DNA from: a virus
Reading direction: 5' to 3' (one strand)
IMG/VR virus record: IMGVR_UViG_3300025921_000002
Span: 1 to 64,000 of that record
DNA length: 64,000 nucleotides
How positions within the stretch are numbered: the stretch's first letter is position 1; every line of letters begins with the position of its first letter. The notes under the pieces were generated by a model. It worked only from the letters and a program-made list of their open reading frames with translations. It was not told the origin of the DNA and did no database searches. Both the position numbers and the translations under genes were made by a program. This document shows, piece by piece, positions 26,971-46,581 of this stretch.

Positions 26971-26980
26971 AAAAATAAAA

Positions 26981-27063
26981 AAACCTATTAAGGGTTCAAC
27001 CGATTGCGCCAGTCTCCCCCAAATAGGGTTTTAATGTTTTTGATGCGGAGCGCAATTCCGAAT
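26981..27063 (-). ncRNA. HNH-leader pseudoknot RNA, copy 1
   Basis: CGGA-ATTGCGC-TCCG ... GGGGGAGA-ctg-GCGCAAT-cgg-TTGAACCC, downstream of TATATTTG (27078-27071). Confidence 0.7.
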
Positions 27064-27104
27064 TACAATTCAAATATAAGTAATATCCTACTAATTTGCA
27101 ATAG

Positions 27105-27287
27105 TTAACGTAAAGCCAAACTATGTCCATTAACAAACCAAAGTATAGCACCCAATATCACCAATAGGATAATAATGCCTTTAACAATGGTAGGAATAGG
27201 CCAAATATACCGCTCGAATACCCAAAGTATGAGTGCGACAACCCCTAAGAATATCAGTAAGTAAAGAAGTTGTACGAGGATTTGCAT
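27105..27287 (-). CDS. 60-aa two-TM membrane protein
   Basis: Two hydrophobic helices separated by YIWPIP. Confidence 0.7.
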   Translation of the reverse strand: MQILVQLLYLLIFLGVVALILWVFERYIWPIPTIVKGIIILLVILGAILWFVNGHSLALR

Positions 27288-27366
27288 GGTGTGATAACAA
27301 AAAATAATGTCAAAAGTTTGGACATTATTACTTTAAGTTATAGATTTATACAAAAATTGTCAAAAT

Positions 27367-28419
27367 ATGGCTTTGTCGCAACTTGAACAAGAATACTACA
27401 ACGACCTTTTAGCACCACCAATTGATGAAACAATACCACCCGCAGACGACACTCCGCCTGCCGATGATACCCCACCAGTTGACCCGCCAATAGATACTCC
27501 ACTTGCTGACGAAATACCGCCAGTCGATGAAGTTCCGCCCGTAGTAGTGACTCCACCAGTTGTTACACCGCCCGTAGATACGCCTTCGGTTTCAACCAAA
27601 AAATACATCCCTCTCGAAGATGAGAAAACCATCTACGACACTTTAGCTAAAAAGTACGGGCATGAAAGAATGAAACCCGAAGAAAAGGCTTTAGCTTTTA
27701 TAGCACAGCAAAATCCGGGTTTAGACGAAAACGAAATACTATTTATTGCGGCAAATGACTACGGTATAGGCGTTGACAAGATTAGCGACGAAGATTTAAC
27801 CGACGAACAGATATTAAACCTTAAAAAACAGGAAATATCCCGTAAAAAGCTAATGTACCAAGCCGACCAATTCTTTAAAGAAGAAGCCGGAAAGGTAGAA
27901 TTGCAGGGATATGACCCGCTTGACCTTGACCCTGACTATAAATCTTATCAGGAAAGGCAAATTCAGGCTCAAAAAGACGAAGAAGAACGCAGTAAGAAAT
28001 TTAACGAAATATTAAACGATATCCAAACTACCGCCTCATCATTAGCGGAACATACAGAAAAGGTTGAAGTTGACATCGACGAAAGCAAGTTGCCTTTTGA
28101 TTTAAACTTTAAACTGGACAAAACAAAACAAGATAAGCTGTCTGACTATGCACAACGGTATTCGCCGTCTGATGCAGAAGTTAGTCAATTCACAGACCCG
28201 AAAACAGGCAAGTTCGACTATAAGGGTTACCTGACTTATCTTATTCCATCTGTATTTGCCCGTGAATTACTAAAAGCAGGCGTCAAGCAAGGCATCACCA
28301 CAGACCGCGAAAAATTCATCGAAAAGGAACTCAAAAATTCCACGTTAAGGAATAATGAGGCTTCCAAAGTAGTGGATAAGGAGTTTGATTTGGTTGATGC
28401 GTGGACGTTTGGTAAATAA
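27367..28419 (+). CDS. Capsid scaffolding protein (acidic; PPADDTPP repeats at the N-terminus)
   Basis: Position between portal and MCP; acidic low-complexity N-terminus. Confidence 0.65.
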   Translation: MALSQLEQEYYNDLLAPPIDETIPPADDTPPADDTPPVDPPIDTPLADEIPPVDEVPPVVVTPPVVTPPVDTPSVSTKKYIPLEDEKTIYDTLAKKYGHERMKPEEKALAFIAQQNPGLDENEILFIAANDYGIGVDKISDEDLTDEQILNLKKQEISRKKLMYQADQFFKEEAGKVELQGYDPLDLDPDYKSYQERQIQAQKDEEERSKKFNEILNDIQTTASSLAEHTEKVEVDIDESKLPFDLNFKLDKTKQDKLSDYAQRYSPSDAEVSQFTDPKTGKFDYKGYLTYLIPSVFARELLKAGVKQGITTDREKFIEKELKNSTLRNNEASKVVDKEFDLVDAWTFGK

Positions 28420-28454
28420 TTAACAAAAAACGTCGAACTTAACAACTTAAAAAA

Positions 28455-29813
28455 ATGGCATACAACAACACAGGCCAGAACCCATCACAGGTTTCTTTAG
28501 CCAATATTAATTATCAGTACGAATCTGATTTATCTATGCTCGTACCGCGCGCATACCCAAAATTCATTAACCAATTCCCGTCTTTAGCATCTAAAAACTA
28601 CATCGTGATGCGTGAAGGACAGGGCGATATGGTTTACACAGACAACAAGACCTTTTACTTCTGGACTAAAAAAGGAAAGAACGTTCCGTCATTCAAGGTA
28701 TCAACTTTGGTAGCTCCCGGCACACCGTCAGGAACCATCACTTGCTCTACCGCTTATCAGTATGACAGCAACACTCTTTCCCCTTTTGGTAACGGTTGGT
28801 ATTTCTATAACGATAGCACAGGTCAAACTATTCAGTTGACCAACGTGGTAAATTCAGGCGGTGTTACTACTGCTACCGCCACCACAACTGACGGGAGCAA
28901 CCTTTCTATCGCTACTACTGACCTGATGATATTTGACGCTACGGTAGTAGGTGAGGCTTCCGGTTCACAGACCACAATGGCAACCATTGACGTAAAGAAC
29001 ACCAACTATTGCGATACCATCAAAAGTACGCAGACCTTTACCGACTGGTCGTTATTCGAGCGTTTGGACATCCCTAACAATCCCGCAGGTTTCGATAAAA
29101 TCCGCTACCGCCAACAGGCAGATGAGCGTGATCGGTTCCTTTATCAGCAGGAACGTTTGCTGATGTTCAACAAGCCTATCACCAACATCACCGGGGTAAC
29201 CGCACAGCACACAGGCTTATTGCCACAAGTGCAGTTAGGCGGTCAGACTGACACGACCTCAACCATCGTTAATCAGGCTTACTTCGACAACTGGCGCAGG
29301 CTTATCGACGCACAGGGTTATTCAATGGAGTACGATGCTTTGCTAAACGTAGAGCTTCGTATGAAGTGGGAAAACTTTATACAGTCAACCTATAACAATG
29401 GTTCGATTGTGTATTTGGATTCACCTGCTTTCACCCACGGCCCTGCCGATTTGAACAGGAACTTCCAAGCCTACAACTTCCACGGGATTAAATTGAACTT
29501 TATGACCTACGATTACTTCTCAAGCGCCAACATTGCCGGACAAGTTCCGAACTCTGGCTTGTGGAACAACGCCGTATTGTTCATTCCAAGAGGTGAGGGT
29601 ATTGACCCTGCTACCAACGTAAACGTACCACGTTTCAGCGTAAGGTGGCAAGGTGTTGACGAAGGTTCAAGTGCTATCAAACTTCGTTTGACTGGCGGTC
29701 TTGCACCTATCGCAACAGACGACATCGAACACTTAGTTGTATCAACTGTAACCACAAAAGGTTTGCAGGCATTTGGTATCAACGGCTACATGTTCGGTCA
29801 GTTAGCTGCATAA
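28455..29813 (+). CDS. Major capsid protein
   Basis: 452 aa; strongly biased codons; HK97-like TGLLPQV and C-terminal GLQAFGIN; followed by a hairpin. Confidence 0.85.
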   Translation: MAYNNTGQNPSQVSLANINYQYESDLSMLVPRAYPKFINQFPSLASKNYIVMREGQGDMVYTDNKTFYFWTKKGKNVPSFKVSTLVAPGTPSGTITCSTAYQYDSNTLSPFGNGWYFYNDSTGQTIQLTNVVNSGGVTTATATTTDGSNLSIATTDLMIFDATVVGEASGSQTTMATIDVKNTNYCDTIKSTQTFTDWSLFERLDIPNNPAGFDKIRYRQQADERDRFLYQQERLLMFNKPITNITGVTAQHTGLLPQVQLGGQTDTTSTIVNQAYFDNWRRLIDAQGYSMEYDALLNVELRMKWENFIQSTYNNGSIVYLDSPAFTHGPADLNRNFQAYNFHGIKLNFMTYDYFSSANIAGQVPNSGLWNNAVLFIPRGEGIDPATNVNVPRFSVRWQGVDEGSSAIKLRLTGGLAPIATDDIEHLVVSTVTTKGLQAFGINGYMFGQLAA

Positions 29814-29816
29814 TAT

Positions 29817-29851
29817 TAAGGGGGCGGGAATTAACTTGCCCCCTAATTTTT
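29817..29851 (+). terminator. Hairpin/terminator after MCP
   Basis: gggggcggg...cttgccccc followed by a T-run. Confidence 0.6.
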
Positions 29852-29856
29852 ATAAC

Positions 29857-30726
29857 ATGAATGATTTAGCACTCAAGCCCGTAATGGGCAGACCAAAAAA
29901 AGAAAACGTTCCGGTAGAAAAAAAGGAAGAAAGGCTTGTTGACGTAGGTTTTGAGATAGACCCTGAAAAGGACTATATCTTTGAAACCATTAAAAAGTCG
30001 CCAAACCCACGCCACGAAGTATTAGCTTCTACCTGCCGGATATTTGACACCGAAGAAAAGAGGTACAGGGATATTATCTACATTCCTACCGCCCCATCCA
30101 TCTTTAAAGAGGATTTGGACGAAAGCTGGGATGCTATACCCTCACCGCCACTATTCTTTTACCGCGACCAACTGATTATACACGGTCAGGATAAAAGAGG
30201 CATGGAGTATGTGATGATGCACTCTGACTACGAGTTCAGCCCTTTTAAAGTGTCGGGCAGGCAACCTAAGTTTACTTTAGTAGACAAAGAAGTGCAGGAA
30301 AAGATAAAGGCCAAAATACACGAGGCGCAGTTTAAGGCGCAGGAAGCCATTAAAAAACTTCCTATTGAAGATTTACGCCCTATCGCAAGAGTGGTGTTTG
30401 GCGTAACTGAAATAGCCGATACAGCCATTGTGAATAAAATGAATGAAATCGCCAAATCAGACAAAAAAGGAACAGGGAAACTTCCGGCAGAACAAATACT
30501 GGAAAATATCGGAAACCCTGAACTGGTAAGGCGCTACAATATACAGTCAGGCATAGACAACGGTTTAGTATTTATTGACACGAATACAAGTCAGGCAAGG
30601 TTCAGAGAAAACAACGTGTTTATCCTGCAACTAAAAAGCCGCGACTACGTGAAGGAACTGGTGGACTTCTCCAACACAGGCGAGGGCATGGAGTTTTATA
30701 ACCAGTTGAAAAAGAAAATGAATTAA
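29857..30726 (+). CDS. Conserved post-MCP protein (probable start 29857)
   Basis: Position and size as in crAss-like morphogenesis modules. Confidence 0.65.
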   Translation: MNDLALKPVMGRPKKENVPVEKKEERLVDVGFEIDPEKDYIFETIKKSPNPRHEVLASTCRIFDTEEKRYRDIIYIPTAPSIFKEDLDESWDAIPSPPLFFYRDQLIIHGQDKRGMEYVMMHSDYEFSPFKVSGRQPKFTLVDKEVQEKIKAKIHEAQFKAQEAIKKLPIEDLRPIARVVFGVTEIADTAIVNKMNEIAKSDKKGTGKLPAEQILENIGNPELVRRYNIQSGIDNGLVFIDTNTSQARFRENNVFILQLKSRDYVKELVDFSNTGEGMEFYNQLKKKMN

Positions 30727-30777
30727 AATCTCCCTCCTCAAAGGGACTAATTTCATAGGTTTATAGGTTTAGGTTAG

Positions 30778-30813
30778 AGTGATAAGCTGCGAGAGTTTGT
30801 CACTTTATTTTTT
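30778..30813 (+). terminator. Intrinsic terminator
   Basis: agtgataagc/gtttgtcact followed by a T-run. Confidence 0.65.
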
Positions 30814-30853
30814 TATATTTACAATGAGAATTTGGTTTTAGAGTGGTTAATGG

Positions 30854-30882
30854 AAAGCAGGTTTGAATGGCCTGCTTTTTTT
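30854..30882 (+). terminator. Intrinsic terminator
   Basis: aaagcaggt/gcctgcttt running into T7. Confidence 0.75.
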
Positions 30883-30937
30883 GTTTTTAATATCTGAAAT
30901 ATTCTTTACATTTACTACGGTATAACAAAAAAGAATA

Positions 30938-31594
30938 ATGGCGGTTTCGATTGATTACGTTCACCAACTTGTTTACGATCTTGCGGCTAAACAGCTCGCC
31001 TCGTTCCCAAGTCCGAACGATTTTAATAATTACGCTGAACTTGCATCCATAGACCTTTTTAACTACTATAACGACGAAAGAAACAAAGAGTTGATAGATG
31101 TTAAAATGGGGCAGACTATAAATATCCCTAACACACTTTCAGACTTTGTTGTTTATCAGGCCGTAATGGAGCAAAGCGGGAATGAGTTTTTATACCCCGA
31201 TGATTTCATGTATGACTTGGCTTTAACAAACAGCGTATCGAAAGCAGATTTCAAAAAAGTTGACCCTGATAAGATATTCAACTATATCAACAGCACGATT
31301 GATGCGCCAAGTTTGGACTTTCCGATTTATATGCCCCTTGATCAAAGCAGGGTAGTGGTTTATCCTACGGTAATTCCATCGTTAACGTATCTTAGAAAAC
31401 CAATAACACCCGTTTGGGCTTATACAGTAATAAATAATAGACCTGTTTATGACCCGCTAACAAGCGTAGACTTTGACTGGAGTCCGACAGAGGTTTACAG
31501 GCTTACAATGAGAATATTAAACTACTTTGGAATTTCTATTAGGGATACCGAGCTTATGCAAGAGGCACAACAATTAACCATAGGAGCAAGCTAA
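30938..31594 (+). CDS. Tail ring/adaptor protein 1
   Basis: P.DFNNYA..A..D.F, YLRKP..PVWAY and ILNYFGISIRD patterns typical of crAss-like ring proteins. Confidence 0.7.
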   Translation: MAVSIDYVHQLVYDLAAKQLASFPSPNDFNNYAELASIDLFNYYNDERNKELIDVKMGQTINIPNTLSDFVVYQAVMEQSGNEFLYPDDFMYDLALTNSVSKADFKKVDPDKIFNYINSTIDAPSLDFPIYMPLDQSRVVVYPTVIPSLTYLRKPITPVWAYTVINNRPVYDPLTSVDFDWSPTEVYRLTMRILNYFGISIRDTELMQEAQQLTIGAS

Positions 31595-31595
31595 G

Positions 31596-32246
31596 ATGGC
31601 ATTAACTACGAAATTAGAGGTTGTTCAGGAAATACTATACGAGGTATTCGGGGGAATGCAATCCAACCAATCCGCTATTTCCGAAAATTTCATTTTGCGT
31701 AAGTTAAATGACCGGATAGCAGAAGCGGCGGTTAAGTCTGCTTTTGGCTCTTATAATCTCGATGGATGCGTTTGTGTTGATGATATATTCAATCTTACCT
31801 ATTCAGCGTTAACATTGCTTACAGATAGCAATAACGGGCTTAAATATGTGGTACTACCAACGCAGCCAATAGGCTTACCGTCCGGAAGGGCTTTTAATGT
31901 TTATCCACCTAATAATTTGGGCGGTATTCAGCAAAGCACATTCAAACCAATTTCGAGAGGTGAAGTGACCTATATAAGAAGTTTACCGGTAATAAAAAAG
32001 ATATTCCACTTTGTTGAAAACGGAAGGTTATACATCATTGATAATTACAATTTGAGCCAATATTTCCCTACGCTGAATATGACTGTCACTTCTTCGGGGG
32101 CAAATAACCTGACAGATATACTTAACTTGCCCGATGATATGATAGCCGGAGTCAAAATGTTAGTAATACAGGATTGCAAACAAATGATGATGTTAGCAGA
32201 TACAACGCCACTCCCACAAAGCGATGCACCAGAACCAAGAAACTAA
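31596..32246 (+). CDS. Tail ring protein 2
   Basis: Size and position; LP.DM motif near the C-terminus. Confidence 0.6.
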   Translation: MALTTKLEVVQEILYEVFGGMQSNQSAISENFILRKLNDRIAEAAVKSAFGSYNLDGCVCVDDIFNLTYSALTLLTDSNNGLKYVVLPTQPIGLPSGRAFNVYPPNNLGGIQQSTFKPISRGEVTYIRSLPVIKKIFHFVENGRLYIIDNYNLSQYFPTLNMTVTSSGANNLTDILNLPDDMIAGVKMLVIQDCKQMMMLADTTPLPQSDAPEPRN

Positions 32247-33011
32247 ATGGAAAATACACTATCACCACTTATAAGCCTCGATGAGATAGTTAACGGTTAT
32301 CTCGATCAACATCAAAGGCCACAAGGCCAATACAGGCGCATATACAGCATTGCTATTCGTGGTTATAGGTTATTCTACCGTGATAGTTTAGGCTTGCCTA
32401 AAAGCGTTACATTGCCCATACAGGCAAATGGTGTAGCTACCCTACCAACTGATTTTATGAGTAAGATACAGATAGGCGTTTTAAATGAAAGGGGTGAATT
32501 TGCTTCGCTTGTAGAAGATAATAACCTATCGCTTACAGATGCGGTTTCTTCGGACAGGCTTAGTCAAAAACAATACCATACCCAATACGATAACACCGAT
32601 TATATTTTAGGTTTCGAGGACTTTAATAACGGAGTTTATCCCGGTTGGGGTTACGGTCAATTAGGTGTTGGTGGGAATAACCTTATTGGAAGCTACCGTA
32701 TAGACTACACCGACAGGGTAATTGTACTTAACTTTCATTACAGGCCGACAAACCTAATATTAGAGTATTTGGCTATGCCGACCAATAACGGGGAATATGC
32801 AGTACATCCTTTCTTTCAAGAGGCGCTAATAGCTTATATCAGGTGGCAGGACAGCGTAGGTAACAAGACTATTGGGATAAGCCAACAAAGGGATAATAAG
32901 GCTATTTATGATATGGAGTATAAGAATGCAAGGAGAGCCATGCAGCCATTCGATCCGTCCGATGCTTCAAATCAATATCGTAAAAGCCAACGTATGGCCG
33001 TAAAATCATAA
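32247..33011 (+). CDS. Tail ring protein 3
   Basis: SLDEIVN.Y, LPTDF, ILEYL and VHPF.QEAL.AYI.W. Confidence 0.65.
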   Translation: MENTLSPLISLDEIVNGYLDQHQRPQGQYRRIYSIAIRGYRLFYRDSLGLPKSVTLPIQANGVATLPTDFMSKIQIGVLNERGEFASLVEDNNLSLTDAVSSDRLSQKQYHTQYDNTDYILGFEDFNNGVYPGWGYGQLGVGGNNLIGSYRIDYTDRVIVLNFHYRPTNLILEYLAMPTNNGEYAVHPFFQEALIAYIRWQDSVGNKTIGISQQRDNKAIYDMEYKNARRAMQPFDPSDASNQYRKSQRMAVKS

Positions 33012-33015
33012 TACG

Positions 33016-36000
33016 ATGTGCGCGGTAATGAAGGATTTCAAGATGTTCCAAGCCGGGGGTTTGGATTATGATAGCGCAGTTGAAGTCCGTGCTAAAAATG
33101 ATTATTTTCCAGCGTTTAACATTCGCCCTCAAGGGGTAGCAGGCTTAGACGAGGGGTATATAGCTAACATTGAGTCTAATCAGCTTCTTTCAGCCTCGGT
33201 AGCCCCCGGAATATCCCGTTGCATAGGTTCAGCGGGTTTTGAGTCAGCAAGGTTTGGCGTGGGTATTTATTTTAATTCAGCAGGCTATAATCAAATAAGG
33301 AAAGTTGACTACGATACCGACACGGTTACTACGATTGATATTTCAGCGTGGCCTTTAAGCCCTCAAAACTACGTCAACGACATTAAGTTAGTCAATAACG
33401 AATTTTTGTTGATGAATGACGGACATAACCCACCATTCTACGTTAACCTACCTGCACTGGAAGCAGGCGACTATGGGGAAACAACGGCAACAGACTTTAT
33501 GTTAGCCAAGCCGCAGCCGTGGTATCCTGCCTCGGCTTCTTATAGCGATGACGCAAGCAGGGCTGTAAATCTTCTCAATACCAAGTTATTCAGGTTCAGA
33601 ACACAGTTTATAGGACTTTATAACGAACCAAGTATAGATGGGGTTATTTCACCGCTATTCATCCCCGAAGAACAGTCTACACCGAGGGTCGGAACAGACG
33701 TAACCAAAAATAATAATCTAATTATAAAGGTTGACGCGGGAACAGACAGGGTAAAGACTTTGGTACTTGACGGGCAATACGGTGTAACGGATTGGTTTAC
33801 GGTCAGGACAATAGACCGGGCAGATATACTTGCACTTCCTTTAAATATCGACATACCTACGCAAGTTTACGAGGCATACGACCCTGCTACAAACCTCTAT
33901 ACGTTCGTCTTTTATAACGATGGGTTATACGTAAACAAACCTGTACTTGAAACCGACCAACAGTATTCTAACGTTCCTATTACCGCAGGGGCATTAGAGA
34001 TACTCAACGGCAACCAAGTAGTGTTTGGTGATATAACCACAGGTTATTACAAACCCGTAATAGACGTTTCGCTAAGCGCCACAAACTATAATCCCAATTT
34101 AAGCCTGCCATTTACCGATTCAAGCCCGTTAAGGCAACTAATTGTTAACCCCGGTCAGTCAGGTTCGGGATTAGGCAACCACAAGAGGTTAGTACAAATA
34201 GAGTTTACAGGAGTCGTTCAGCAGGGAGATATATTAACCATCGTCATGGTTGACATACGAAACGCAGGGAATACACTGACTTATGTTTTCCCTTGTGACT
34301 TCGCAGAAAGCGGGGACACGGCACTATTTATTACCAATTTAGCCCCTGAAATAGCAAGCACAAGTGTTTACACCCCTACCGACGGTTTTACCATAGGTTT
34401 GAATATTGTAACGCAGCCTTTCTTTACGCTGCAATCTTCGACCATAACATTATTTAACCCCGGCTCAACTGTATTTAAATCCATACATGCTTTAAAACTT
34501 AACTCATCCTATCAATTAGCTTTTGCGGGTTATGATTATTTCGGCAGACCTTTCCCTATAGTGACGGATGCCAGTTGGATATTAAAAACTAACTCTTACG
34601 GGCAGTCACACGGGGCAACGCCACAATTCAACTGGAAAATAAACACGCCAACCGCGCCGGAGGGGATGTATACTTACCAGTGGCTTATATCGCAAAATAA
34701 CACCCACCTGCAAGACCTGTATATGCTTGCTTCCATAATAGCCTATGAGGGGACATGGGATGCCACAGCAAACACCCCGACGCTTGCAGCAAACACAGGA
34801 ACTACGGGTTTCGTGTATAAGATTACTGGCCCCGGCTCACAGAATTTAGGTATGGGGGAAACGGCCTATATGACTAACGACTACGTGCTTTATAATGGGT
34901 CGGCATGGACAGTTATCCCGGGAAGCTATGGTGACCTTTCAGATACCACAGCCTACTACTTTTACCTGAACTCACTTCAAGCGTTTAACGCAAGGAACAA
35001 TACCTCTATTTTAAACTACGACTACACGGTTAACGACAGGTGTACTTTAGCCTATTATGATGATGCCGGAAATATAAACTACTTCGACGGTGTAGTAAAC
35101 CCGATTGTCGATGTGGCTGTTTTGGGTTATGATGCCTCGGTATTCTTTCTAAAGGTCAATAAGGCAAGTGGCTTTGACTCATCTACCATTGTAGGTAAAA
35201 ATGTGATGCTTGAACTTTATACGCCAAAATCGGTTCAGTCAAGCCCCGAAGCACAGGTATTCTACGAAACAGGTGTGGTTTATAAAGTAATAGATGGCCA
35301 GTACGAAACCCTGCAAGGTGTAATAACAGACGGTGACGCCTACTTTAAAACAAGGCAAATCCCCGGCTCAATAGACCCAAATACCACTTATTCAACGGTT
35401 GTTGAAGATTTTAACTTCTCTGATTTTTACCCGTCAAGGTATACTTCCTACGGCAGACCGAGAATAATTGATGATGTTTTAGGCAGGATTAGAAAAATAG
35501 CCAATATCATTTACTCACAACAGTATATTGTAGGCTCAAAGAATAACGGGCTTCCTGTTTTCTACGTAGCAGACGTTTATGGCGAAGCAGGGGGACAAAC
35601 CTCATCTTCTTACGGGGCTATTGTTAAACTTATTCAGATAAACAACGAATTAATTGACCTGCAAGAGTTGAATCACGGCTCTATTCCGGTTTTTATTAAT
35701 ATTATCGAAGATCAAATCGAACAGCAGAATGTAGCCATTTCTGAAAAGATACTCGGTAACATAAGATATACCTATTCAATTCACATTGGGGTAGGCGTAG
35801 CCAAAGAATCCATTGCCGTTTACAACAACATCATCTACTGGATAGACAGCAACAGAAGCGAGCCGATAAGGTGGAATAGCGCAAACGGGGCTATTCCTAT
35901 CAACGAGAAGATGTCAAAATACTTTAGGCAAGTACTGGCAGCGGCTTACGCAGCCGGGCTTAAAGTTATTGGCTATTACGATATTTTCAACGACGAGTAT

Positions 36001-36903: not shown

Positions 36904-36934
36904 GAAAATAAATAAAATGAGTATATTTACAATA

Positions 36935-37013
36935 CCGACCGCAAGCGGATTTAAGAAACTTAAAGAGCCATTAAACGGGGGAGATGTCTTGCGGCGTTGA
37001 ACCCGGTTAATGG
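36935..37013 (+). ncRNA. HNH-leader pseudoknot RNA, copy 2
   Basis: CCG-ACCGCAAG-CGG ... GGGGGAGA-tgt-CTTGCGG-cg-TTGAACCC, downstream of TATATTTA (36922-36929). Confidence 0.7.
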
Positions 37014-37027
37014 TATTCTTTTTTAAA

Positions 37028-37468
37028 ATGAAACCGACTATATTTTCAGATGGTAGATTGTATGGGTTTACAAACGAACAAAGATTTAAAACTAAATTTG
37101 AAGTAAATGAAGAAACAGGATGTTGGGAGTGGAATGGTAGAATTAATAAAGGTGGCTACGGAAAGTTCACTTTTAATAACAAAGAATTAACGGCTCACAG
37201 AGTTTCATACATGCTACACAAAGGGGAAATACCTGATGGACTGCATGTATGCCATACCTGTGACGTAAGGCATTGCGTCAACCCAGATCATTTATGGTTG
37301 GGGACGAATGCTGATAATATGGCTGATAAAGTTAAAAAAGGGAGATTTGCAACAACCCATGGGACATACCAAATGTATTTTAGAAGAGGGTGTCGCTGTG
37401 AAATATGTGTAGATTGGTCAAGAAAAAGATATAGAAAAGGTGACCGGATTGACTCAAATAGAGAATAA
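37028..37468 (+). mobile_element. HNH homing endonuclease (probable start 37028)
   Basis: GCWEW.G....GYG.F......AHRVSY....G.IP.G..VCHTCD...CVNPDHL.LGT..DN..D. Confidence 0.93.
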
Positions 37469-38333
37469 CAGAATCATAATAGATTTAACCCAAGCGGCTT
37501 TATCTACCGGCTGGTCTGTTAATGGAAGCCAAGCTGACCATGTGCAGTGTAATGCCGGGGATATATTTTTGCTTGGCTACCCTCTTGTTGTAGGTCAATC
37601 CTACCGATATACCGTACAGGCAACAGTAAGTTCAGGCTATTTACAGGCTATGGGTGGCGTACAGCACACTACGGGAGGTTTTATTGAAGAAACTATTGTT
37701 GCCACAGGAACACAATTCTTTTTTTACGCTAACGGTAACTGCACGATACAAGACTTCGTTATTGAAGCATTTGCCCCGACTGTAAGCATTTATGAGCAAA
37801 GTACGGTAGCTTTTTCAGAAAGGTTGAATAAATGGACTTCATTCTACACCAAACGCCCTGAAAGCGCCTATTCGATGTATAAAAAGACTTATGAATGGCT
37901 TGAGGGTGATGTTTACCTTGTAGAAAGTGGGTCAAATGACAGGTGTAAGTTCTTTGGAGTACAATACCCTGCTACTATTTGGTTCTCTACAAATCAGCAA
38001 CCAACGCTTGCTAAGACGTTTATGTCTATTAATTACCAAGCAAGCCAATTGTTAATAACACCACCAAGCGGAGTTTATACATCGACAGGGCAATACTCGG
38101 AATTAATTGAGCAGGATTTCTTACAGGACACCTTAAACAACGGTGATAAGGTCTACTTTACGGAAGGCCTCGCACAGGCTTATTACATGAGGGCAATCCC
38201 AGATATGATAGAGGGGCAACAATTGAAAGGCAATTATCTTGAAATGGGTTTGCAGACCACATCGCCAAGTTCAATATTGACTTTATTTAGCACAGAAATA
38301 GGTTATGTGCATTCTTACCAAAATATAAGATAA
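37440..38333 (+). CDS. Tail muzzle/stabilization protein, C-terminal part
   Basis: TVAFSE..NKWTSFY...PE, FFGVQY...I.F..N.....K.F..I and G..LKGNYL are motifs normally found at the end of the single-gene muzzle protein. Confidence 0.7.
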
Positions 38334-38350
38334 TTACATATATTTATACC

Positions 38351-39417: not shown

Positions 39418-40775
39418 TGGCAGAGATACAACCAAACTGGAACTCTTATTACAGCCCACAGGCTTACGATACCTTTAAAGGCAATCCCGGCCTCGACGAC
39501 CTTAATAAACGCTATGCCCAAATAGAAAAGGATAGGGAACTTGACAGACAGTTATTAGGTCAGCAAATCTCTAAAATGAACTTTGGTGGCGTTAAGCCTG
39601 CCGACGTGGGTGACCTGCAAAACCAGTACAACGATATTCTAAACGCCTATCAAAAGGCAAGGTCAATCACCGACCCTATGAAACGGGCGCAACTGACTAT
39701 GGAGTTGAGGCAGAAGATGAACGGTCTGCAATATAACGTGGAGAATAAAAAAGAGAACCACAGTCAGGAATTAAAGATGTTCGAGCAAATGAACCATCCT
39801 AATGCTTTCCCGGCTGACAACGCACAACAATTAGTAGGTGATGTGATAGGTACACCAACCGGAAGCCCCGAATATCAAACAAAATTAGAGGCTTTCAGAA
39901 ACGGTTGGCAGGATAAACCTGTTGACTTGGGAAAACTAACAACAACAGCCTTTACTAAAAACCTGACCAAAAGCACCAATTCAGGGCAAGAAATAAAAGA
40001 CCCCGCGACAGGACTTTTCAGGAATCAGATTATCAAAACCTCTGATGTTCCAAAAGCCGCTTACACCAACGAGATTGTAAACAGCGCATTAGGCGACAAA
40101 AGAACACTACATACCATAAGTAAGCTATACCCTGATTTGCCACCTGCACAAGCAGTTACACAATTTGCAAATGATAGTTATGAAGACCAAAAGCGTAAGT
40201 TGATAAGTGACACAACTTATAGCGCACCGCATATGAGTTATGACCAACATTTAGGCTTACAGGAAAATGCTGCAAGGCTTAAATCTAAATACCCATCGTT
40301 CGGTCAACAGCAAAACCTTACACCAATTTATAGGCAAAAATTAGTTGGTGATATGTTGAATGGTGTGCCGGGAAGTGGCGAAACTTTAGTCAATAAACTA
40401 AAAGCAGACCCATCCTATCAAAGACCTTTGGGTATTAAGGTAAATGGAGATAATATTCAATTTACAATACCCGATAAATTAAAAAATAAAATAGATAGTG
40501 ATGGAAAACCGTCGTGGCAGGTAGAAGTTCCTACACGGGTTGTTACAATTAATAAAAAAGACCCAAATGCAGATGTTCAGCTTAACGAATTAGTTAACCA
40601 ACTTACAGGCGAAAAAGTTGACATTTCCTCTTTAAGGACACAAGGCGGTAAAAAGCATGTTGCAGTTTCGGTTAGCAGTCAACCTGCAAAAGTAACCAGT
40701 CAAGACGAATACAATAAAGTACCTAAGGGCACTCAATACATAGCACCTGATGGTAAAATTTATATCAAAAAATAA
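39417..40775 (+). CDS. Internal virion/ejection protein (medium)
   Basis: Position; C-terminal EYNKVPKGTQYIAPDGKIYIK motif. Confidence 0.6.
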   Translation: MAEIQPNWNSYYSPQAYDTFKGNPGLDDLNKRYAQIEKDRELDRQLLGQQISKMNFGGVKPADVGDLQNQYNDILNAYQKARSITDPMKRAQLTMELRQKMNGLQYNVENKKENHSQELKMFEQMNHPNAFPADNAQQLVGDVIGTPTGSPEYQTKLEAFRNGWQDKPVDLGKLTTTAFTKNLTKSTNSGQEIKDPATGLFRNQIIKTSDVPKAAYTNEIVNSALGDKRTLHTISKLYPDLPPAQAVTQFANDSYEDQKRKLISDTTYSAPHMSYDQHLGLQENAARLKSKYPSFGQQQNLTPIYRQKLVGDMLNGVPGSGETLVNKLKADPSYQRPLGIKVNGDNIQFTIPDKLKNKIDSDGKPSWQVEVPTRVVTINKKDPNADVQLNELVNQLTGEKVDISSLRTQGGKKHVAVSVSSQPAKVTSQDEYNKVPKGTQYIAPDGKIYIKK

Positions 40776-43700
40776 TGGGACAATTTAGCTGGACTCCACC
40801 ATCAACTGATGAACCTGTAAAGAAAACAGGATGGACTCCACCTGCTTCTGATATTCCTGTCGTTGAAAAAAAAAGTCCAGTTGGCAACGCTTCTGTGGCT
40901 ACCTCAACGCAGTCTGGCGATGGCTCAAGTCCTTCCCCTCTCCAACAAAGTCTTACTAATGCTATGAAAGCGTATAGCATTACGCATACGCCAAAAGAAG
41001 TTAGTGATGTTCAAAACACAGTAAGCCAACAAAAACAAGAGGATAAAATAGCAAGAACCCCCGATGCTGTAGTTGCCCATGAGAAATACATGGAAACACC
41101 CTTAGGTAAAACACAGGGCGCTTTTCAATATGTTGGCTCTAAAGCCTCTAAAGGTGCTTTACAGATAGCTAAAGGCGCTACGTGGCTATATAATCATACT
41201 TCGGCCAATCCAATTCAGGGAATGATTGATGAAGTAAGTAATCAGCATAAAGGACAGGAAGATTTTTTCAACAAAGCAGATAAGGCAACTAACTTAGGTT
41301 TGACAGCTACCGACCTGCAAAACATTGAAAGCAATAAAGGTATAGGTGCTTCTGCCTTACGCACCGCAGGAACGTTCGCCGAGATAGCGCCAACAATATT
41401 AGGCGGCGAAGCATCTGGCGCACCAAAACTTGCCTTTGCATTACAGGGATTAGGACAGGGAAAAGAAACAATGGATGCAGTTGACCCCGACCATAAAGTT
41501 AACCCTGCAATAAGGGACGGCTTTATAGCCCTGAATGGCGCTTTTAATGCCGCTTTAATGGGTGACGCAGCAGAAACTAACTTTGCTAAAATGCCTGCCG
41601 CATTACGCGGTAAAATAAGTTCAGCTTTAGCTATGGACGCTATTAAGCAAAATGGCGAAAAAGAAATAACTGGTGAACTTGTTGACCATACCGTAAAAGA
41701 CTTTGCCCATAACTTTTATAAATTAGGCACAGACTATGTACAAAAGGTAGCCCGTACAGGCGTTGACCTTTCAGCATTGCAAGCAGCAACTGGCTTAGCT
41801 AAATATGGTGTAAATAAAGCAAGTGGGCAGGAGGTTTTTAAAAATCCCGCAGGAGAAACCGCAGAAGGGGTAAGCAACGCTGTTTTACAGCAAGCACCTG
41901 TTTTTGGTGCAGCAGGTACAGTAGGTGACCTTTCAAAGTTAACTCCTTATTCATCTTTTAAAAACGAGGTTTTTGAGAATATTGTTAAAGACCCAAGCCA
42001 AACAGATGCTATTAAACAGGAAATAGCACAACATGGTCAGGAAAGAGGATGGACACCGGAAGAAATTCAGGCCACTAACGACCATATTGACCAAATAAAA
42101 ACAGTAGCGCAAAGACTCCCTGAAACTATTAAACCTGAAAAAAAATCAGATGCAGTTCAATTAGTACTTGATCGGGATGCCCTAAAGAAACAACTGGCTA
42201 ATGAAGTTGGTAAAAGAGGCGCGATGGATGAGTCTGTTAAGGATTTGCCTAATGCTCACGAAGAATGGCTTACTGACAAGATTGAGCAAGCGAACGATAA
42301 GTTAAGGGCTATGGCTACGGGCAAGCGTACAACTTATTCTAAAGGCGTTGGCGACGAGGAAGGAAAGTTCTTCAAAACTACCAACGGCGAAAAGGAAGAA
42401 ATAACTGAAAATAGGTATAACTTAGAGAAGTTAGAACGCACAGCAAATGAAAATACTAATGAACAAGAAAAAATAAACAACAATGAAAAAATCAGCAACC
42501 AAAGCGAACAAGAAAGCGGTGTTCAGCAAACCGCCAGCGGGGAAAAAGTGGCAGAACAGCCCGGCAACCCCACCGAAAGCGTCCAAGCCATCGGCAACGG
42601 TAGTAGCGAAAATGAAGAAAGGCTGTTAACAACAGGGGGTGAACAGCCCCCTTTAAAAGCCATTAAAAACAAGGTTGATGAAAAAAATGCTCAAGACCCG
42701 GATTTTTCAGAAAAGAATTATGACGCATGGGAAGAGCACCGAATGGGTTTGGAAAAACAAATATTCCATGAGCCAATAGATGAAAATTTACCCATTAGTG
42801 AAAATATTAAACTTTTAAATAAATCATTAGAACCTGAATTTGAAAAAATAAAACAAGTTATAGGCGATGATGAAGTTGCTGATAAGTATATTTCAGCTAT
42901 CCAACGTAACCCAAAACGTGCTGAAAAAATAAGGAATGAATTACCAAAAGATGTTCAGGGTAAACTATTCAACCGAATAAATGAGGATGATTTTGAAGAT
43001 AATAAACAGCAAACTGACGAATTTGAACATCTTAATTCAGAAAGCGATAGGGATATAACAGACGAAATGAAATTTTCATGGATAGGGAAAAAAATAACCT
43101 CTCCATCCGACATGCAAAAGCCATTTAATCGAGTTATTGTGAAGGATTTAATTTCCCAATTGGCTGACAAGGGTTATTCGCAGGAAGAAATAGTCCGAAG
43201 GGCTATGCAAGACCGTGTTAGTCGGGGCGATAATGCCGAGCATGTAACTGAATTGGTTAAGGCTGTTTTGGAAGAACACGGTAAAAAATCTGAACCACAA
43301 CAAAAACAAATAGAAGGAGGTAAAAATGCCACTAAAACCGGGAACATCGAAGAAAACAATCAGCAGCAACATCAAGGAACTGTTGGACAGCAACAGGGGG
43401 TCGAAGAAAATCGGCAACACCAAGAAGAACCTGTCGCTAAAAGCCAAACAGAAACAGGCGGTAGCAATAGCATTGAGCAAGGCGGCCAAGTCAAAAAAAC
43501 AATCCTAACTAAACGAGCCTACGAAGGAGAGATACAGCTCGAAGTAAAAAAGCATCTTGAAGAAAAGGGGCTGACACGTAAGTCATTCTCACAAGAGGAA
43601 CGCTCTAAACAAGCTACCGACTTTATTAATAAGTTTGGTGAAGAAGCGGCACAAAAAGCAGTTGAAGCAGGAGATATAGACGGTGGTATGGCCGCATCTG

Positions 43701-45898
43701 TATTAGCACAACTAAAAATAAAAACCGATAAGGCAATGTCCGATTTCCCCGAAGGAAGTGAGGAACGCGATGCTTTGGCTAAAAAGCAAGCCGACATAAT
43801 AAACCTCATGGAAAAAAAGGGTTATTTAGGCGGTGAATTTAACGGGCAGTTAGCGCATGAATACCAAAACGCTGAATTAGACTTTGCCAATGTTAAAAGA
43901 CAAGTTGAGGACTTAACTAAAAAGCCACTTACCGCAGGTCAGGAAAAGAAGATCAAAGAAATTACTTCTGAAAACGAAAAGCTAAAAGCACAATTACAGG
44001 AAGCCGAAGCTAAGCTAATTGAAGAAACTGACAAGGCTTTTGAATCTGGCAAAGAAGCCGCTAAAACAGAAACCAACGCTGAAAAAGCAAAAAGAATAGC
44101 TCAAAAACTAAGAGATAATGCCAAGCTAAATAAACCGGGCATTTTTTCTGCGGCAACACCTGCATCTTTAATTTGGGACGGTGCTATTGAAGTAACAGCC
44201 AAAAGCATTGAAGCAGGCGGTAAACTGGCTGACGCTATTGAAGCAGGTATCAAACATATCAAAGCAAGCGATTGGTATAAAAACCTGCCTGCAAACAAGA
44301 AAGAACTTGCTGAAAAAGAGTTTAAACGTGTTAATTACGAACATTCAGGCAGTACCGATGTAGAGGACTTGCAGGAAAGGTTTGTTGACAAAACCGACAA
44401 TAAGTTCACCCCCAACGAGGCTAAAGACATTTGGGGCTACATGAAGAAAACCTATATTGAAAATGGCACTTCATATCGGGATGCCCTTTCAAAAACAGCC
44501 GAAGATTTAGGGCTTTCTTGGAGGCAAGTTAGCGAAGCCGTAACCACGCCAAAGGTCAAAAGAATGTCGGATGAAATGTGGAAACGTCAATCCGAATACA
44601 CCCGAAACAGAACCGCTATTAAGAATTGGATAGATACTCAAACAGCTAATCCTTTTATGAAAGCCCTTAGAAAGGTTTCAGGTGCTTTTAGGGGGTTGGC
44701 TGTATTTGGTCACGGTGGCATATTTGTTGGCACACACGCGGGTACGACAGTATTTAATCCGTCTATGTGGAATAAAACAATACCTGCTTTTTTTAGAGGT
44801 TGGAAGTTTGCCTACGGAAACGAGGGTAATTATCAGCGTTCAATGGAAGAATTAAAAAATTCTCCAAATTATCTTATTGCTCAAAGAGCGGGTTTGAAAA
44901 ATAATCCTGAAAGAATAAATACAGAGGAATATCAAAAATCTCAACAATATTTAGGCAGAGCAGGATTAGCCGGAGAAAGAGGATTTAATGCCATAAAAGT
45001 GCTTCGGCAGGACTTATTTGACTATCATTTCAATAAACTGTCACCTGCGGAAAGAGATGACCCGGAAGTAGCTAAGAGCATAGCTAAATTAGTTAATTTG
45101 GCTACAGGAGCGACTAACTTAAAAATACCATCATGGGTACAAGAAGTTTCATTTGCCGGGGGTATGGAGGGTTCAAGATGGGAAAAGTGGCTAAGAAGCC
45201 CCGCAGAGGCCGCAGATATTGCCATGAAAGCCATATTCACGCCTGACAAAGCAACTACCGAGGAGCGTATTTTTGCAAAAGTATGGGCAAGACGGGTTGG
45301 TGAGCAATTGGCCACATTCAGTGCGCTACTTTTAGCTAATTCTGCTATTCAAAATACTTTAAATCCTAAAAATCCTGTAAATTATACAAACCCCGATAAG
45401 CCGGACTTTATGAAATTTAAGTTTGGAGATAGGACTATTGACCCAACATCGGGCATGTTAGGTGTAGGAAAGTTTATATATAAAGTAGGTAAATTACCAT
45501 TCCAAAGCGAAAAAGAATTACATGGTGATAAAAAGATTGCCGCTTTAGGTAAGGATTTGCTTCAATACGGTAGAGGAAAACTTGCTCCATTTTATGGCAC
45601 GGTAGCCGATGTATTTACAGGAAGGGATTTTAACGGAAACCCGCTACCATATAGTAAGGAAAAACCGGGTAAAGGGCATCATAAATTAGGTTATGGAGAG
45701 TACGCTTTAAGTAAAGCCCCGTTGCCGGGAGCGGAAGCTGCAAATGTTACTTATAAATCAGCCGAAGAACATGGAGCGCATGTCCCTACATTGGATGATG
45801 TGATAAAAGGATTCTGGTCAGGGGCTATTTCAGGGGCAACAGGATTTAGGGTTGGCGAATACGATGCCAACTCCCCTGAAAATAAAAAGAAAAAATAA
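40775..45898 (+). CDS. Large internal virion/ejection protein (1707 aa)
   Basis: Size, Ala/Gly-rich then helical composition, position after the smaller ejection genes. Confidence 0.7.
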   Translation: MGQFSWTPPSTDEPVKKTGWTPPASDIPVVEKKSPVGNASVATSTQSGDGSSPSPLQQSLTNAMKAYSITHTPKEVSDVQNTVSQQKQEDKIARTPDAVVAHEKYMETPLGKTQGAFQYVGSKASKGALQIAKGATWLYNHTSANPIQGMIDEVSNQHKGQEDFFNKADKATNLGLTATDLQNIESNKGIGASALRTAGTFAEIAPTILGGEASGAPKLAFALQGLGQGKETMDAVDPDHKVNPAIRDGFIALNGAFNAALMGDAAETNFAKMPAALRGKISSALAMDAIKQNGEKEITGELVDHTVKDFAHNFYKLGTDYVQKVARTGVDLSALQAATGLAKYGVNKASGQEVFKNPAGETAEGVSNAVLQQAPVFGAAGTVGDLSKLTPYSSFKNEVFENIVKDPSQTDAIKQEIAQHGQERGWTPEEIQATNDHIDQIKTVAQRLPETIKPEKKSDAVQLVLDRDALKKQLANEVGKRGAMDESVKDLPNAHEEWLTDKIEQANDKLRAMATGKRTTYSKGVGDEEGKFFKTTNGEKEEITENRYNLEKLERTANENTNEQEKINNNEKISNQSEQESGVQQTASGEKVAEQPGNPTESVQAIGNGSSENEERLLTTGGEQPPLKAIKNKVDEKNAQDPDFSEKNYDAWEEHRMGLEKQIFHEPIDENLPISENIKLLNKSLEPEFEKIKQVIGDDEVADKYISAIQRNPKRAEKIRNELPKDVQGKLFNRINEDDFEDNKQQTDEFEHLNSESDRDITDEMKFSWIGKKITSPSDMQKPFNRVIVKDLISQLADKGYSQEEIVRRAMQDRVSRGDNAEHVTELVKAVLEEHGKKSEPQQKQIEGGKNATKTGNIEENNQQQHQGTVGQQQGVEENRQHQEEPVAKSQTETGGSNSIEQGGQVKKTILTKRAYEGEIQLEVKKHLEEKGLTRKSFSQEERSKQATDFINKFGEEAAQKAVEAGDIDGGMAASVLAQLKIKTDKAMSDFPEGSEERDALAKKQADIINLMEKKGYLGGEFNGQLAHEYQNAELDFANVKRQVEDLTKKPLTAGQEKKIKEITSENEKLKAQLQEAEAKLIEETDKAFESGKEAAKTETNAEKAKRIAQKLRDNAKLNKPGIFSAATPASLIWDGAIEVTAKSIEAGGKLADAIEAGIKHIKASDWYKNLPANKKELAEKEFKRVNYEHSGSTDVEDLQERFVDKTDNKFTPNEAKDIWGYMKKTYIENGTSYRDALSKTAEDLGLSWRQVSEAVTTPKVKRMSDEMWKRQSEYTRNRTAIKNWIDTQTANPFMKALRKVSGAFRGLAVFGHGGIFVGTHAGTTVFNPSMWNKTIPAFFRGWKFAYGNEGNYQRSMEELKNSPNYLIAQRAGLKNNPERINTEEYQKSQQYLGRAGLAGERGFNAIKVLRQDLFDYHFNKLSPAERDDPEVAKSIAKLVNLATGATNLKIPSWVQEVSFAGGMEGSRWEKWLRSPAEAADIAMKAIFTPDKATTEERIFAKVWARRVGEQLATFSALLLANSAIQNTLNPKNPVNYTNPDKPDFMKFKFGDRTIDPTSGMLGVGKFIYKVGKLPFQSEKELHGDKKIAALGKDLLQYGRGKLAPFYGTVADVFTGRDFNGNPLPYSKEKPGKGHHKLGYGEYALSKAPLPGAEAANVTYKSAEEHGAHVPTLDDVIKGFWSGAISGATGFRVGEYDANSPENKKKK
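42483..42629 (+). CDS. Nested +1-frame 48-aa Lys-rich protein
   Basis: MKKSATKANKKAVFSKPPAGKKWQNSPATPPKASKPSATVVAKMKKGC, preceded by the A-rich leader aataaacaaca. Confidence 0.5.
   Translation: MKKSATKANKKAVFSKPPAGKKWQNSPATPPKASKPSATVVAKMKKGC
43326..43508 (+). CDS. Nested +1-frame 60-aa Lys-rich protein (MPLK.G.S.KTIS.NI.E...QKQAVAIALS.A family)
   Basis: Recognisable small phage protein pattern; GAAGGAGG-TAAAA-ATG upstream. Confidence 0.75.
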   Translation: MPLKPGTSKKTISSNIKELLDSNRGSKKIGNTKKNLSLKAKQKQAVAIALSKAAKSKKQS

Positions 45899-46417
45899 TT
45901 AACACTTTCTATTTTTTCTATATTCAGCATTTCTCGCTAATACCATTTCTCTATTATTTTGGTAATATTCAGCTTGTTTTCGCTTATTACTTTCGGCATT
46001 ATTTAATCGCCACTGTTTTTGATATTCCCTTTCTAATTCTACGCAGCCGTCGCACCTGCATCCATTTCTAAACATGCTTCTTGATGGACATTGCGCCGTT
46101 GGCAATCTTCCTTTGTTCTGTGCATCATTTATATTTTCTTTATTTGTGCCTATCCACAAATGAAATGGGCTAACGCATTTTCTATTATCACATCTATGGC
46201 AAACAAACATTCCTTCTGGAATTTCTCCAATATAAAATTGATAAGAAAATCTATGTGCAAGTATTCTTTCTTGTTTTATCTTAAAATTACCATAGCCGCT
46301 TACATTTAATGGAGATTGCCATTCCCAGCATTGCGTTTCTGGATTTATAAGATATTTTTTTGTAAATCTTTCTATTGGGGATACCGCTAAATAATCCTTT
46401 CTCCCAAGTCCAGCCAT
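45899..46417 (-). mobile_element. HNH homing endonuclease (probable start 46417)
   Basis: CWEW......GYG.F......AHRFSY....GEIP.G..VCHRCDN..CV.P.HL..GT..EN..D, plus a C-terminal GCRCDGC shared with the 37028 HNH. Confidence 0.93.
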
Positions 46418-46426
46418 AGTAATAAA

Positions 46427-46510
46427 AAGTCCTGTTCCGGGTTCAAGCGATTGCGCCACTCTCCCCCAAAACAGGACTCTAAATATCTTTATTCGGAGCG
46501 CAATTCCGAT
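46427..46510 (-). ncRNA. HNH-leader pseudoknot RNA, copy 3
   Basis: CGGA-ATTGCGC-TCCG ... GGGGGAGA-gtg-GCGCAAT-cgc-TTGAACCC, downstream of TACCTTCG (46526-46519). Confidence 0.7.
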
Positions 46511-46581
46511 TACTTATACGAAGGTAAGAAAAAACTTTTTTATATTATTCTTTTTGTTATTTTTACTAAAAAATAAATATC

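Follow-up and report, generated by a model that had tools for sequence, protein, structure and literature searches.

A kissing-loop leader RNA with a conserved G.A core ahead of HNH endonuclease and replication genes of Bacteroidota phages

By what RNA structures do phages hold their mobile nuclease genes in check? T-even phages restrain their homing endonuclease genes (mobE, segF, I-TevI-III and segB) by 5' terminators and hairpins; the terminators are found at mobE and segF of T4, and the mobE one halts about 30% of transcripts (PMC2988022). In Aeromonas phage 25 the hairpin of seg43(25) leaves the ribosome-binding site uncovered (PMC2988022). Here we describe a leader RNA of ~85 bases that lies between promoter and gene at three HNH endonuclease genes in a window of 64,000 nucleotides (nt), positions 1 to 64,000 of IMG/VR virus record IMGVR_UViG_3300025921_000002, a 74,996-bp phage record from the rhizosphere that is rated complete. 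Each copy consists, in order on the strand of the gene, of a Bacteroidota -7 promoter box, a hairpin (P1), an A-rich linker, a long hairpin (P2), a run of U and the ATG. The likeness to the T-even phages is that mobile nuclease genes would be held at low dose by a 5' RNA structure. However, the T-even hairpins are plain, lie in the coding 5' end or over the ribosome-binding site, and have no second hairpin, loop pairing or G.A core; they are not common to replication genes, and the host phylum is different. A translational hairpin of the T-even type was rejected, because in all 16 members of the main family described below (type A) the ATG lies 10-25 nt beyond P2 and the start is not sequestered.

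The put RNA of phage HK022 is likewise a cis-acting phage RNA, of ~70 nt, with two stem-loops just past an early promoter; its target is the polymerase during transcription, and it suppresses termination while lacking a terminator of its own (PMC9378689). The present leader also places two stem-loops just downstream of a phage promoter, but its P2 has a built-in terminator look, which argues against a simple put equivalence. Loop-loop pairing is unmentioned in the text of the put paper, and no sequence likeness is apparent (PMC9378689). The guanidine-IV (mepA) riboswitch couples a kissing loop to an intrinsic terminator within a leader of two hairpins; there the kissing loop is ligand-dependent and favors read-through by dissociating the terminator, and the loops are conserved (PMC11611296). 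In the present leader, by contrast, the loops vary freely and P1 pairs with the terminator hairpin's own loop, so that pairing and terminator are compatible. With 13 different loop sequences, a P1 that pairs with the terminator loop itself and no Rfam match, assignment to guanidine-IV was rejected. The PeSL cassettes of T4-type phages are, similarly, composite elements of ~100 bp on variable mobile open reading frames (ORFs), better conserved than those ORFs; their stem-loop, in which the stem often has polyG/polyC, either separates the -35 from the -10 box or overlaps the latter, and it ends transcription that arrives from upstream (PMC2839356, PMC4122927). The present structure is instead transcribed from its own promoter, and PeSLs are without pseudoknot covariation; we rejected a PeSL cassette because the -7 box lies 3-19 nt upstream of P1, which places both hairpins within the predicted transcript.

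Structured RNA beside HNH-domain genes is known from HEARO, the omegaRNA of IscB (RF02033), which guides a RuvC-HNH nuclease and is much longer than the present leader. The two differ further in that cmscan gave no HEARO match at E up to 10 and that the present leader is not tied to HNH genes. Fully complementary loops of ~7 nt are familiar from ColE1 RNA I/RNA II and other 7-nt kissing hairpins, where the pairing joins two molecules in antisense control, whereas here it lies within one leader. A type III toxin-antitoxin system (ToxIN-like), for which we looked for tandem antitoxin RNA repeats before a terminator and an endoribonuclease toxin gene, was rejected, since each locus has one unit and the downstream genes encode HNH proteins, helicases, primases and others. 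The original prediction had matched the motif to no named family, and the Rfam search agrees. Membership was judged by a covariance-model score at or above the family's gathering score, for families including HEARO, guanidine-IV/mepA, the small ribozymes and ssNA-helicase. At the gathering threshold, Rfam 15 matched the whole window only with Flavo-1, away from the leaders, and copies 1 and 3 at E up to 10, as well as seven other members at E up to 5, gave only chance-level unrelated matches. GenBank phages gave no match to 20.6 kb of the window (megablast) or to the copy 3 leader (blastn), and a full-text search of the published literature found no description of such a motif.

A covarying pseudoknot and its core

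What defines the leader as a family? We scanned viral (IMG/VR), metagenome and genome collections with a pattern of the core only, and P1 had no part in finding members. An exact-core scan of IMG/VR gave 91 loci, nearly all of them chance, with the full architecture in only 4; scans for core plus U-run in the metagenome and genome collections added contigs L196 (with the near-identical L203/L208/L216), L210 and L226, the last a contig of a Daejeonella metagenome-assembled genome (MAG). Covariance model R1, built from P2 alone, found a second, divergent copy on this Daejeonella contig. The core can therefore vary, and a degenerate core pattern was then used, which added L237, L238, L242, L243 and L246 and brought the type A family to 16 members. 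A relaxed GGGG/CC core gave no further kissing members, just a group of hairpins without P1 (L183-L188).

In all 16 members the P2 loop is the exact complement of the P1 loop over 6-9 nt, and 13 distinct loop sequences occur among them. The P1-side complement lies 22-37 nt 5' of the core and always in the loop of a hairpin with a member-specific stem (16/16). Non-cognate pairings between P2 loops and upstream regions average 3.3 nt; this comparison of cognate with non-cognate pairs takes the place of a formal pseudoknot count, MAFFT having lost the register of the P1 loops. Because P1 was left out of the search, the pseudoknot rests on independent sequences. The stems of P1 and P2 covary as well: when the P2 of 18 sequences is aligned on the model, pairing holds in 94% of cells versus 68% on shuffling, 10 of 14 pairs have changed on both sides, and the outer-stem pairs covary in 7 of 7 cases. 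The conserved structured RNA with a covarying loop-loop pseudoknot that had been read from the window therefore holds, the check on core and loop pairing by covariance model and database search having been widened to the 16 type A members.

The kissing sequences recur strand-swapped far beyond chance. TGTCGG/CCGACA in L007 returns as CCGACA/TGTCGG in L226 (4220), and CTGCAAC/GTTGCAG in L226 (1259) returns as GTTGCAG/CTGCAAC in L246; similarly, the P2 loop CTTGCGG of window copy 2 resembles the P1 loop ATTGCGG of L054. Partly palindromic cores (TGCA, GCGC) account for some of these swaps, but not for TGTCGG.

About 16 nucleotides of the leader are near-invariant. The GGG/CCC pairs of the core are G-C in 17/18, 18/18 and 18/18 aligned sequences. 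Above them lie a symmetric 3x3 loop, 5'-GGA opposite 5'-GAA, then G7 paired with U36 or C36 (12 G.U, 6 G-C), then A8-U35, which is present in 18/18. As judged from the sequence, G5/A38 and A6/G37 of the canonical core may form tandem sheared G.A pairs; the variants A6/A37 and C6/A37 also occur. The core had been likened to a kink-turn, a comparison that we reject: since G7 pairs with U36 or C36, the loop is a symmetric 3x3 one and there is no 3-nt bulge beside the G.A pairs. The G.U pair (G-C in six) and the constant orientation together indicate that the fold exists in RNA of this strand and not in DNA. The same or nearly the same core also occurs in hairpins without P1 (L005/L033/L201/L212 and L183/L186/L187/L188), which have GAAA-type loops, for example AGTTTA-GGGGGAGA-TGTGAAAACA-TTGAACCC-TAAGCT. 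Some of these lack the U-run, and they may be an ancestral or minimal form.

Promoter, start codon and downstream genes

A perfect TAnnTTTG box lies at most 28 nt upstream of P1 in 7 of the 16 type A members against a background of 1.4%, and a box with at least five of six matches in 15 of 16 against 18.6%. This enrichment bears out the earlier placement of the leader directly behind a -7 promoter; the promoter is therefore part of the module, and the RNA would start at or just 5' of P1. At the other end, a run of 5-7 U directly follows the outer stem in 16/16, including four members found without a U-run in the pattern, so that the mark of an intrinsic terminator, a stable stem and then an immediate U-run, is present throughout type A. 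The linker before P2 is A-rich in many members, as in A-tract terminators. Taken together, the U-run and the partly A-rich linker make P2 look like an intrinsic terminator, a likeness that the original prediction had passed over. A simple promoter and terminator scan was uninformative, as it uses sigma-70 boxes and a loop limit below the size of P2. The motif is oriented as the next gene throughout type A, its P2 lies 10-14 nt from the ATG in 12 of 16 members, and the start codon is inside the structure in none (0/16): only an in-frame ATG at 37010, in the 3' strand of P2 of copy 2 and a less likely start than 37028, falls within P2.

Is the leader transcribed? Two rhizosphere metatranscriptome runs contain parts of the phage, and one assembled RNA contig (26699-27069) spans copy 1 from P1 through linker, P2 and U-run into the 5' part of its HNH gene, ending at 27069, 2 nt past the -7 box of that copy. 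Read literally, this contig makes the leader the start of the HNH message, with some transcripts continuing beyond P2. The very uneven cover of the phage points to RNA more than to DNA carry-over. RNA contigs of the two runs begin at 27367 and 27368, the ATG of ORF 27367-28419, and could reflect a leaderless or processed message or an assembly artefact; because both runs begin at this ATG, where no start is predicted, the ends of RNA contigs are unreliable as transcript ends. Copies 2 and 3 are covered by no RNA contig, which is uninformative on their expression.

Does the leader belong to HNH genes? The original prediction placed it before all three HNH genes, one an HNH-AP2 and two others, and absent from the GIY-YIG gene. 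Within the window this stands: the three genes all encode HNH_3 proteins, with a weak AP2 match in one. However, a fourth HNH_3 gene of the genome, at 70470-71047 (-) of the record (L262 10470-11066) and so beyond the window, has a plain hairpin terminator upstream and no leader; it runs in the same direction as its upstream gene. A covariance-model scan of the whole record found exactly three leaders, all within the window, and none near either GIY-YIG gene (window 16514-16759 (+) and record 65809-66063 (-)). Among 80 HNH_3 relatives in IMG/VR, one, contig L054, carries the leader and 79 are without it. Five members stand ahead of HNH genes, namely the three of the window and those of L054 and L196, two related crAss-like contigs, and the leader serves two unrelated HNH architectures; at least nine stand ahead of non-HNH genes. 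For example, SNF2 helicase genes lie downstream in L007 and L242. On the Daejeonella contig, one leader (L226a) is followed by a phrog_15333 gene and an exonuclease, and the other (L226b) by a BT4734-like primase gene and then primase. In L237 and L238 the order is leader, small ORF, replication initiator and primase/helicase, and in L243 the small ORF is followed directly by primase/helicase. The remaining members precede phrog_4652 genes, a DUF6283 gene and small unknown ORFs. In non-crAss phages the motif is embedded in a run of co-directional genes, just where the replication genes start. Over the whole family it either heads replication or recombination modules or stands in front of free-standing HNH cassettes. 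Among 151 Sphingobacteriaceae genomes, matches at E <= 1e-6 occur only on the phage-like contig of the Daejeonella MAG (one other genome, G076, has a weak match at E 0.007), and the leader is therefore not a host element.

The portable RNA and HNH module that had been envisaged is nevertheless found in crAss-like relatives, where a comparison of insertion sites indicates that promoter, leader and HNH gene move as a cassette. L196 is syntenic with 24-33 kb of the window. Its HNH gene and leader follow the homologue of ORF 32247-33011, a position that in the window is a gap of 4 nt, and it is without an HNH gene at the site of window copy 1. The leaders of copy 3 and L196 are about 95% identical over ~85 nt, whereas identity drops to 42% between the HNH proteins and the DNA upstream shows no relation; thus the leader is either far more constrained than the gene or exchanged separately.

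Divergent relatives, which we call type B, occur in cultured phages. GenBank phages were reached via the primase/helicase beside one member, and five whole records were scanned with a second covariance model. Tenacibaculum phage JQ gave a weak model match, in the order leader, small ORF, hypothetical protein and a gene annotated helicase, which is a primase/helicase homologue. Its leader has the same architecture but a different core, AUGAUUUGAG...CUCAAUGAUU, in which the GA/GA pair is kept, and a loop pairing of 8 bp (CATCCTAC with GTAGGATG). About 1 kb upstream of this leader, at L265 3700-3900 (about 34840-35040 of the phage JQ record), lie several direct repeats of ~GCACTTTAAAAGAAACAG that look iteron-like and may mark an origin or operator region. 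A type B element is also present in Cellulophaga phages phi10:1 and phi19:1, with loops GTACGAC/GTCGTAC. A pattern scan gave four further type B members among the matches listed, each with a cognate pairing of 7-8 bp; only 5 of the matches listed are genuine, most being chance and many apparently in coding sequence. The type B total is about 7 members.

The three copies in the window

On re-reading the sequence, all three copies stand where they had been placed, and both the loops (ATTGCGC/GCGCAAT in two copies, CCGCAAG/CTTGCGG in one) and the outer stems (ctatt/aatag, ccattaa/ttaatgg and agtcctgtt/aacaggact) had been quoted correctly. The pattern GGGGAGA-N(8-20)-TTGAACCC occurs 3 times in the window versus 0.00 times in 100 shuffles. 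P1 plus P2 is the minimum-energy fold of all three copies (RNAfold), with z of -0.99 for copy 1, -2.69 for copy 2 and -5.13 for copy 3; fold energy by itself is therefore convincing only for copies 2 and 3. Coordinates are collected in Table 1.

Table 1. Parts of the three leader copies and their HNH genes, in window coordinates.
Feature	Coordinates	Strand	Remarks
Copy 1 leader	27060-26983	(-)	
Copy 1 Bacteroidota -7 promoter box TATATTTG, predicted from sequence	27071..27078	(-)	10 nt 5' of P1
Copy 1 P1 hairpin CGGA-ATTGCGC-TCCG	27046..27060, loop 27056-27050	(-)	
Copy 1 P2 hairpin, outer stem CCTATT/AATAGG	26983..27027	(-)	covariance model 67.7 bits
Copy 1 core GGGGGAGA + TTGAACCC	27020-27013 + 26999-26992	(-)	
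Copy 1 P2 loop GCGCAAT	27009-27003	(-)	pairs with P1 loop
Copy 1 U-run after P2	26982-26971	(-)	
Copy 1 HNH_3 endonuclease gene	26425..26970	(-)	181 aa; weak AP2 match; ATG 13 nt past P2
Copy 2 leader	36935-37013	(+)	
Copy 2 -7 box TATATTTA	36922..36929	(+)	5/6 matches
Copy 2 P1 hairpin CCG-aCCGCAAG-CGG	36935..36948, loop 36939-36945	(+)	
Copy 2 P2 hairpin, outer stem CCATTAA/TTAATGG	36968..37013	(+)	covariance model 65.2 bits
Copy 2 core GGGGGAGA + TTGAACCC	36977-36984 + 36997-37004	(+)	
Copy 2 P2 loop CTTGCGG	36988-36994	(+)	
Copy 2 U-rich tail after P2	37014-37027	(+)	
Copy 2 HNH_3 endonuclease gene	37028..37468	(+)	146 aa
Copy 3 leader	46509-46428	(-)	
Copy 3 weak -7-like boxes TACCTTCG and TATAAGTA	46511..46526	(-)	5/6 matches
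Copy 3 P1 hairpin TCGGA-ATTGCGC-TCCGA	46493..46509, loop 46504-46498	(-)	
Copy 3 P2 hairpin, outer stem AGTCCTGTT/AACAGGACT	46428..46478	(-)	covariance model 73.4 bits
Copy 3 core GGGGGAGA + TTGAACCC	46467-46460 + 46446-46439	(-)	
Copy 3 P2 loop GCGCAAT	46456-46450	(-)	
Copy 3 U-run after P2	from 46427	(-)	
Copy 3 HNH_3 endonuclease gene	45899..46417	(-)	172 aa; ATG 10 nt past P2

The reverse complement of the copy 1 P2 (window 26979-27039 (+)) has a T-rich tail too, with an R1 match of 18.6 bits, and could stop plus-strand transcription running antisense through the HNH gene; that of copy 3 has a weaker T-rich tail. The neighbor of the copy 2 HNH gene, ORF 37440-38333, encodes a protein with a weak crAss muzzle-domain match. 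Elsewhere, at 8208-8279 (+), the window holds a Flavo-1 RNA (RF01705; 52.7 bits against a gathering score of 42), a Flavobacteria motif of unknown function, here in a phage genome.

Proposed attenuation and its alternatives

What might the leader do? From the observed structure, covariation, promoter link, gene contexts and apparent co-transcription with one HNH gene, we propose with moderate confidence that it is a cis-acting, attenuator-like 5' leader RNA of Bacteroidota phages that doses or times DNA-acting genes; the termination, dosing and partner steps below are those that we infer. Promoter, terminator-like P2 and gene follow in direct succession, which is the layout of an attenuator. 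Host RNA polymerase would start at the -7 promoter, a few bases 5' of P1. P1 would fold first, and its loop would then pair over ~7 bp with the loop of the emerging P2. The P2 tip is intrinsically weak, having 1-3 pairs beyond the G.U and A-U ones, and the loop-loop pairing would cap and stiffen it, so that the large apical domain folds in time for closure of the basal stem at the U-run; we regard P1 as the cap because the variants without P1 keep the core and close P2 with a GAAA-type loop. P2 would close through its core (GGG/CCC, 3x3 GGA/GAA loop with a possible tandem G.A, G.U, A-U) and outer stem, the U-run would follow, and most transcripts would stop there while a set fraction would read on into the gene. 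The genes dosed or timed in this way would be those of mobile HNH nucleases, helicases and primases, for which weak or late expression is plausibly required. Furthermore, the core is near-invariant across phages that share almost no proteins and is therefore probably read by a common host component, for which RNA polymerase or Nus factors, an RNase and the ribosome are candidates. More tentatively, and with considerable doubt, we suggest that the leader is a self-contained device, a terminator that fires only when its tip is locked by the 5' hairpin and whose G.A core is read by host machinery or by a ligand. What is unusual is the proposed kissing-loop cap, which comes with the conserved G.A core; attenuator-like leaders as such are known.

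Several observations weigh against attenuation. A general timing signal would be expected in more copies than the one that most phages have. The simple terminator scan did not flag P2, whose apical part exceeds its loop limit, and the fold of copy 1 is no better than its shuffles. No conserved antiterminator alternative fold was seen by eye, and read-through of P2 may be a fixed leak. The sole RNA evidence is an assembled contig that reads through P2; from such a contig neither strand nor ends nor level can be read, and the library may contain carried-over DNA. An all-against-all BLASTP of the ORFs of 13 motif-bearing records, many of them fragments, gave no candidate phage partner protein: the most widespread family, primase/helicase, is in 6 records and none is in more. 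In type B the ATG is 16-53 nt away, so that tight coupling to the start codon is not universal.

Could the terminated RNA of ~90 nt be the product itself? It would then be a trans-acting phage small RNA, such as a host-protein sponge that works through the G.A core, an antitoxin-like inhibitor or a primer or origin transcript of the replication module, with the downstream gene using the leak-through. Promoter, structured RNA and terminator are indeed the layout of small RNA genes and of type III toxin-antitoxin loci; most records have a single copy per phage, the motif adjoins replication initiator and primase genes, and some 16 near-invariant nucleotides are beyond the need of a plain attenuator. 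We nevertheless consider a trans role unlikely: the motif is always oriented as the next gene with an ATG close behind, it is a single unit without repeats, it travels with HNH cassettes, where a trans RNA has no obvious use, and the RNA contig joins it to the HNH message. Equally unlikely in our judgment is a leader that sets mRNA stability or translation start without termination, its compact 5' fold shielding the message from 5'-end-dependent decay and also keeping the U-rich 10-14 nt before the ATG single-stranded for the Shine-Dalgarno-independent Bacteroidota ribosomes, or serving as a translational-repressor operator. The closeness of the hairpin base to the ATG in 12 of 16 members, the start of the structure within a few bases of the predicted transcript start, the read-through in the RNA contig and the stable hairpins beside T-even homing-endonuclease starts (PMC2988022) are consistent with this. 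However, a stem with 5-7 U immediately behind it, kept in every member, is what marks a terminator, no start codon falls within the structure, and the ATG of type B can lie 40-53 nt away.

A riboswitch appears very improbable. In it the kissing loops would scaffold an aptamer whose G.A core recognizes an ion or small molecule, perhaps one that reports on metals or the nucleotide pool and so matters to enzymes acting on DNA, and ligand-dependent folding of the P2 tip would set how fast the terminator closes. The highly conserved internal loop, the invariant GGG/CCC and the tertiary pairing are aptamer-like, the terminator is built into the conserved fold, and guanidine-IV also ties kissing loops to a terminator (PMC11611296); against this, no single metabolite would suit such varied downstream genes, no alternative fold was seen, much of the core is replaced in type B, and no Rfam riboswitch model matches. 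We give still less credence to an RNA dedicated to HNH genes (nuclease-bound or an HNH-specific riboregulator) or to a self-cleaving ribozyme, as the original prediction had entertained. The three of three HNH genes in the window and the two in crAss-like L054 and L196 speak for an HNH link, but the gene contexts largely refute it: the leader is rare at HNH_3 genes (79 of 80 relatives and the fourth HNH gene of this genome are without it), it serves two unrelated HNH architectures, and at least nine members precede non-HNH genes. Nothing points to a ribozyme, there being no ribozyme family match and just one conserved loop. Just as far-fetched is a DNA-level element, either a PeSL-like recombination linker that shuffles cassettes or a signal near the replication genes for an origin or for single-strand initiation. 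Conservation of the leader far exceeds that of the flanking ORFs, HNH cassettes occupy different sites in syntenic phages, PeSLs, ~100 bp of promoter and stem-loop, mediate such shuffling (PMC2839356, PMC4122927), and the motif occurs near primase genes. Yet the compensatory changes in P1, P2 and the loop-loop pairing, with the conserved G.U, need a folded single strand of one polarity, and orientation and the distances to promoter and ATG are fixed; because the covariation is strand-specific, a purely DNA-level reading is excluded. A PeSL-like recombination role could coexist with a role in RNA, without explaining the covariation.

Finally, gene regulation in Bacteroidota phages, including the crAss-like ones, is poorly known, and their hosts have unusual promoters and Shine-Dalgarno-independent translation. 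In unrelated phages the leader marks both replication modules and homing-endonuclease cassettes, and since its divergent type B version occurs in three culturable phage-host systems, it is open to bench tests. RNA engineering in Bacteroidota could also draw on the variable loop pairs as naturally occurring orthogonal kissing pairs. If the leader is the self-contained device suggested above, unrelated Bacteroidota phages and selfish nuclease cassettes would share one host-keyed switch for DNA-metabolism genes, and if a host factor reads the core, this would reveal a control point exploited by phages and by their selfish genes.

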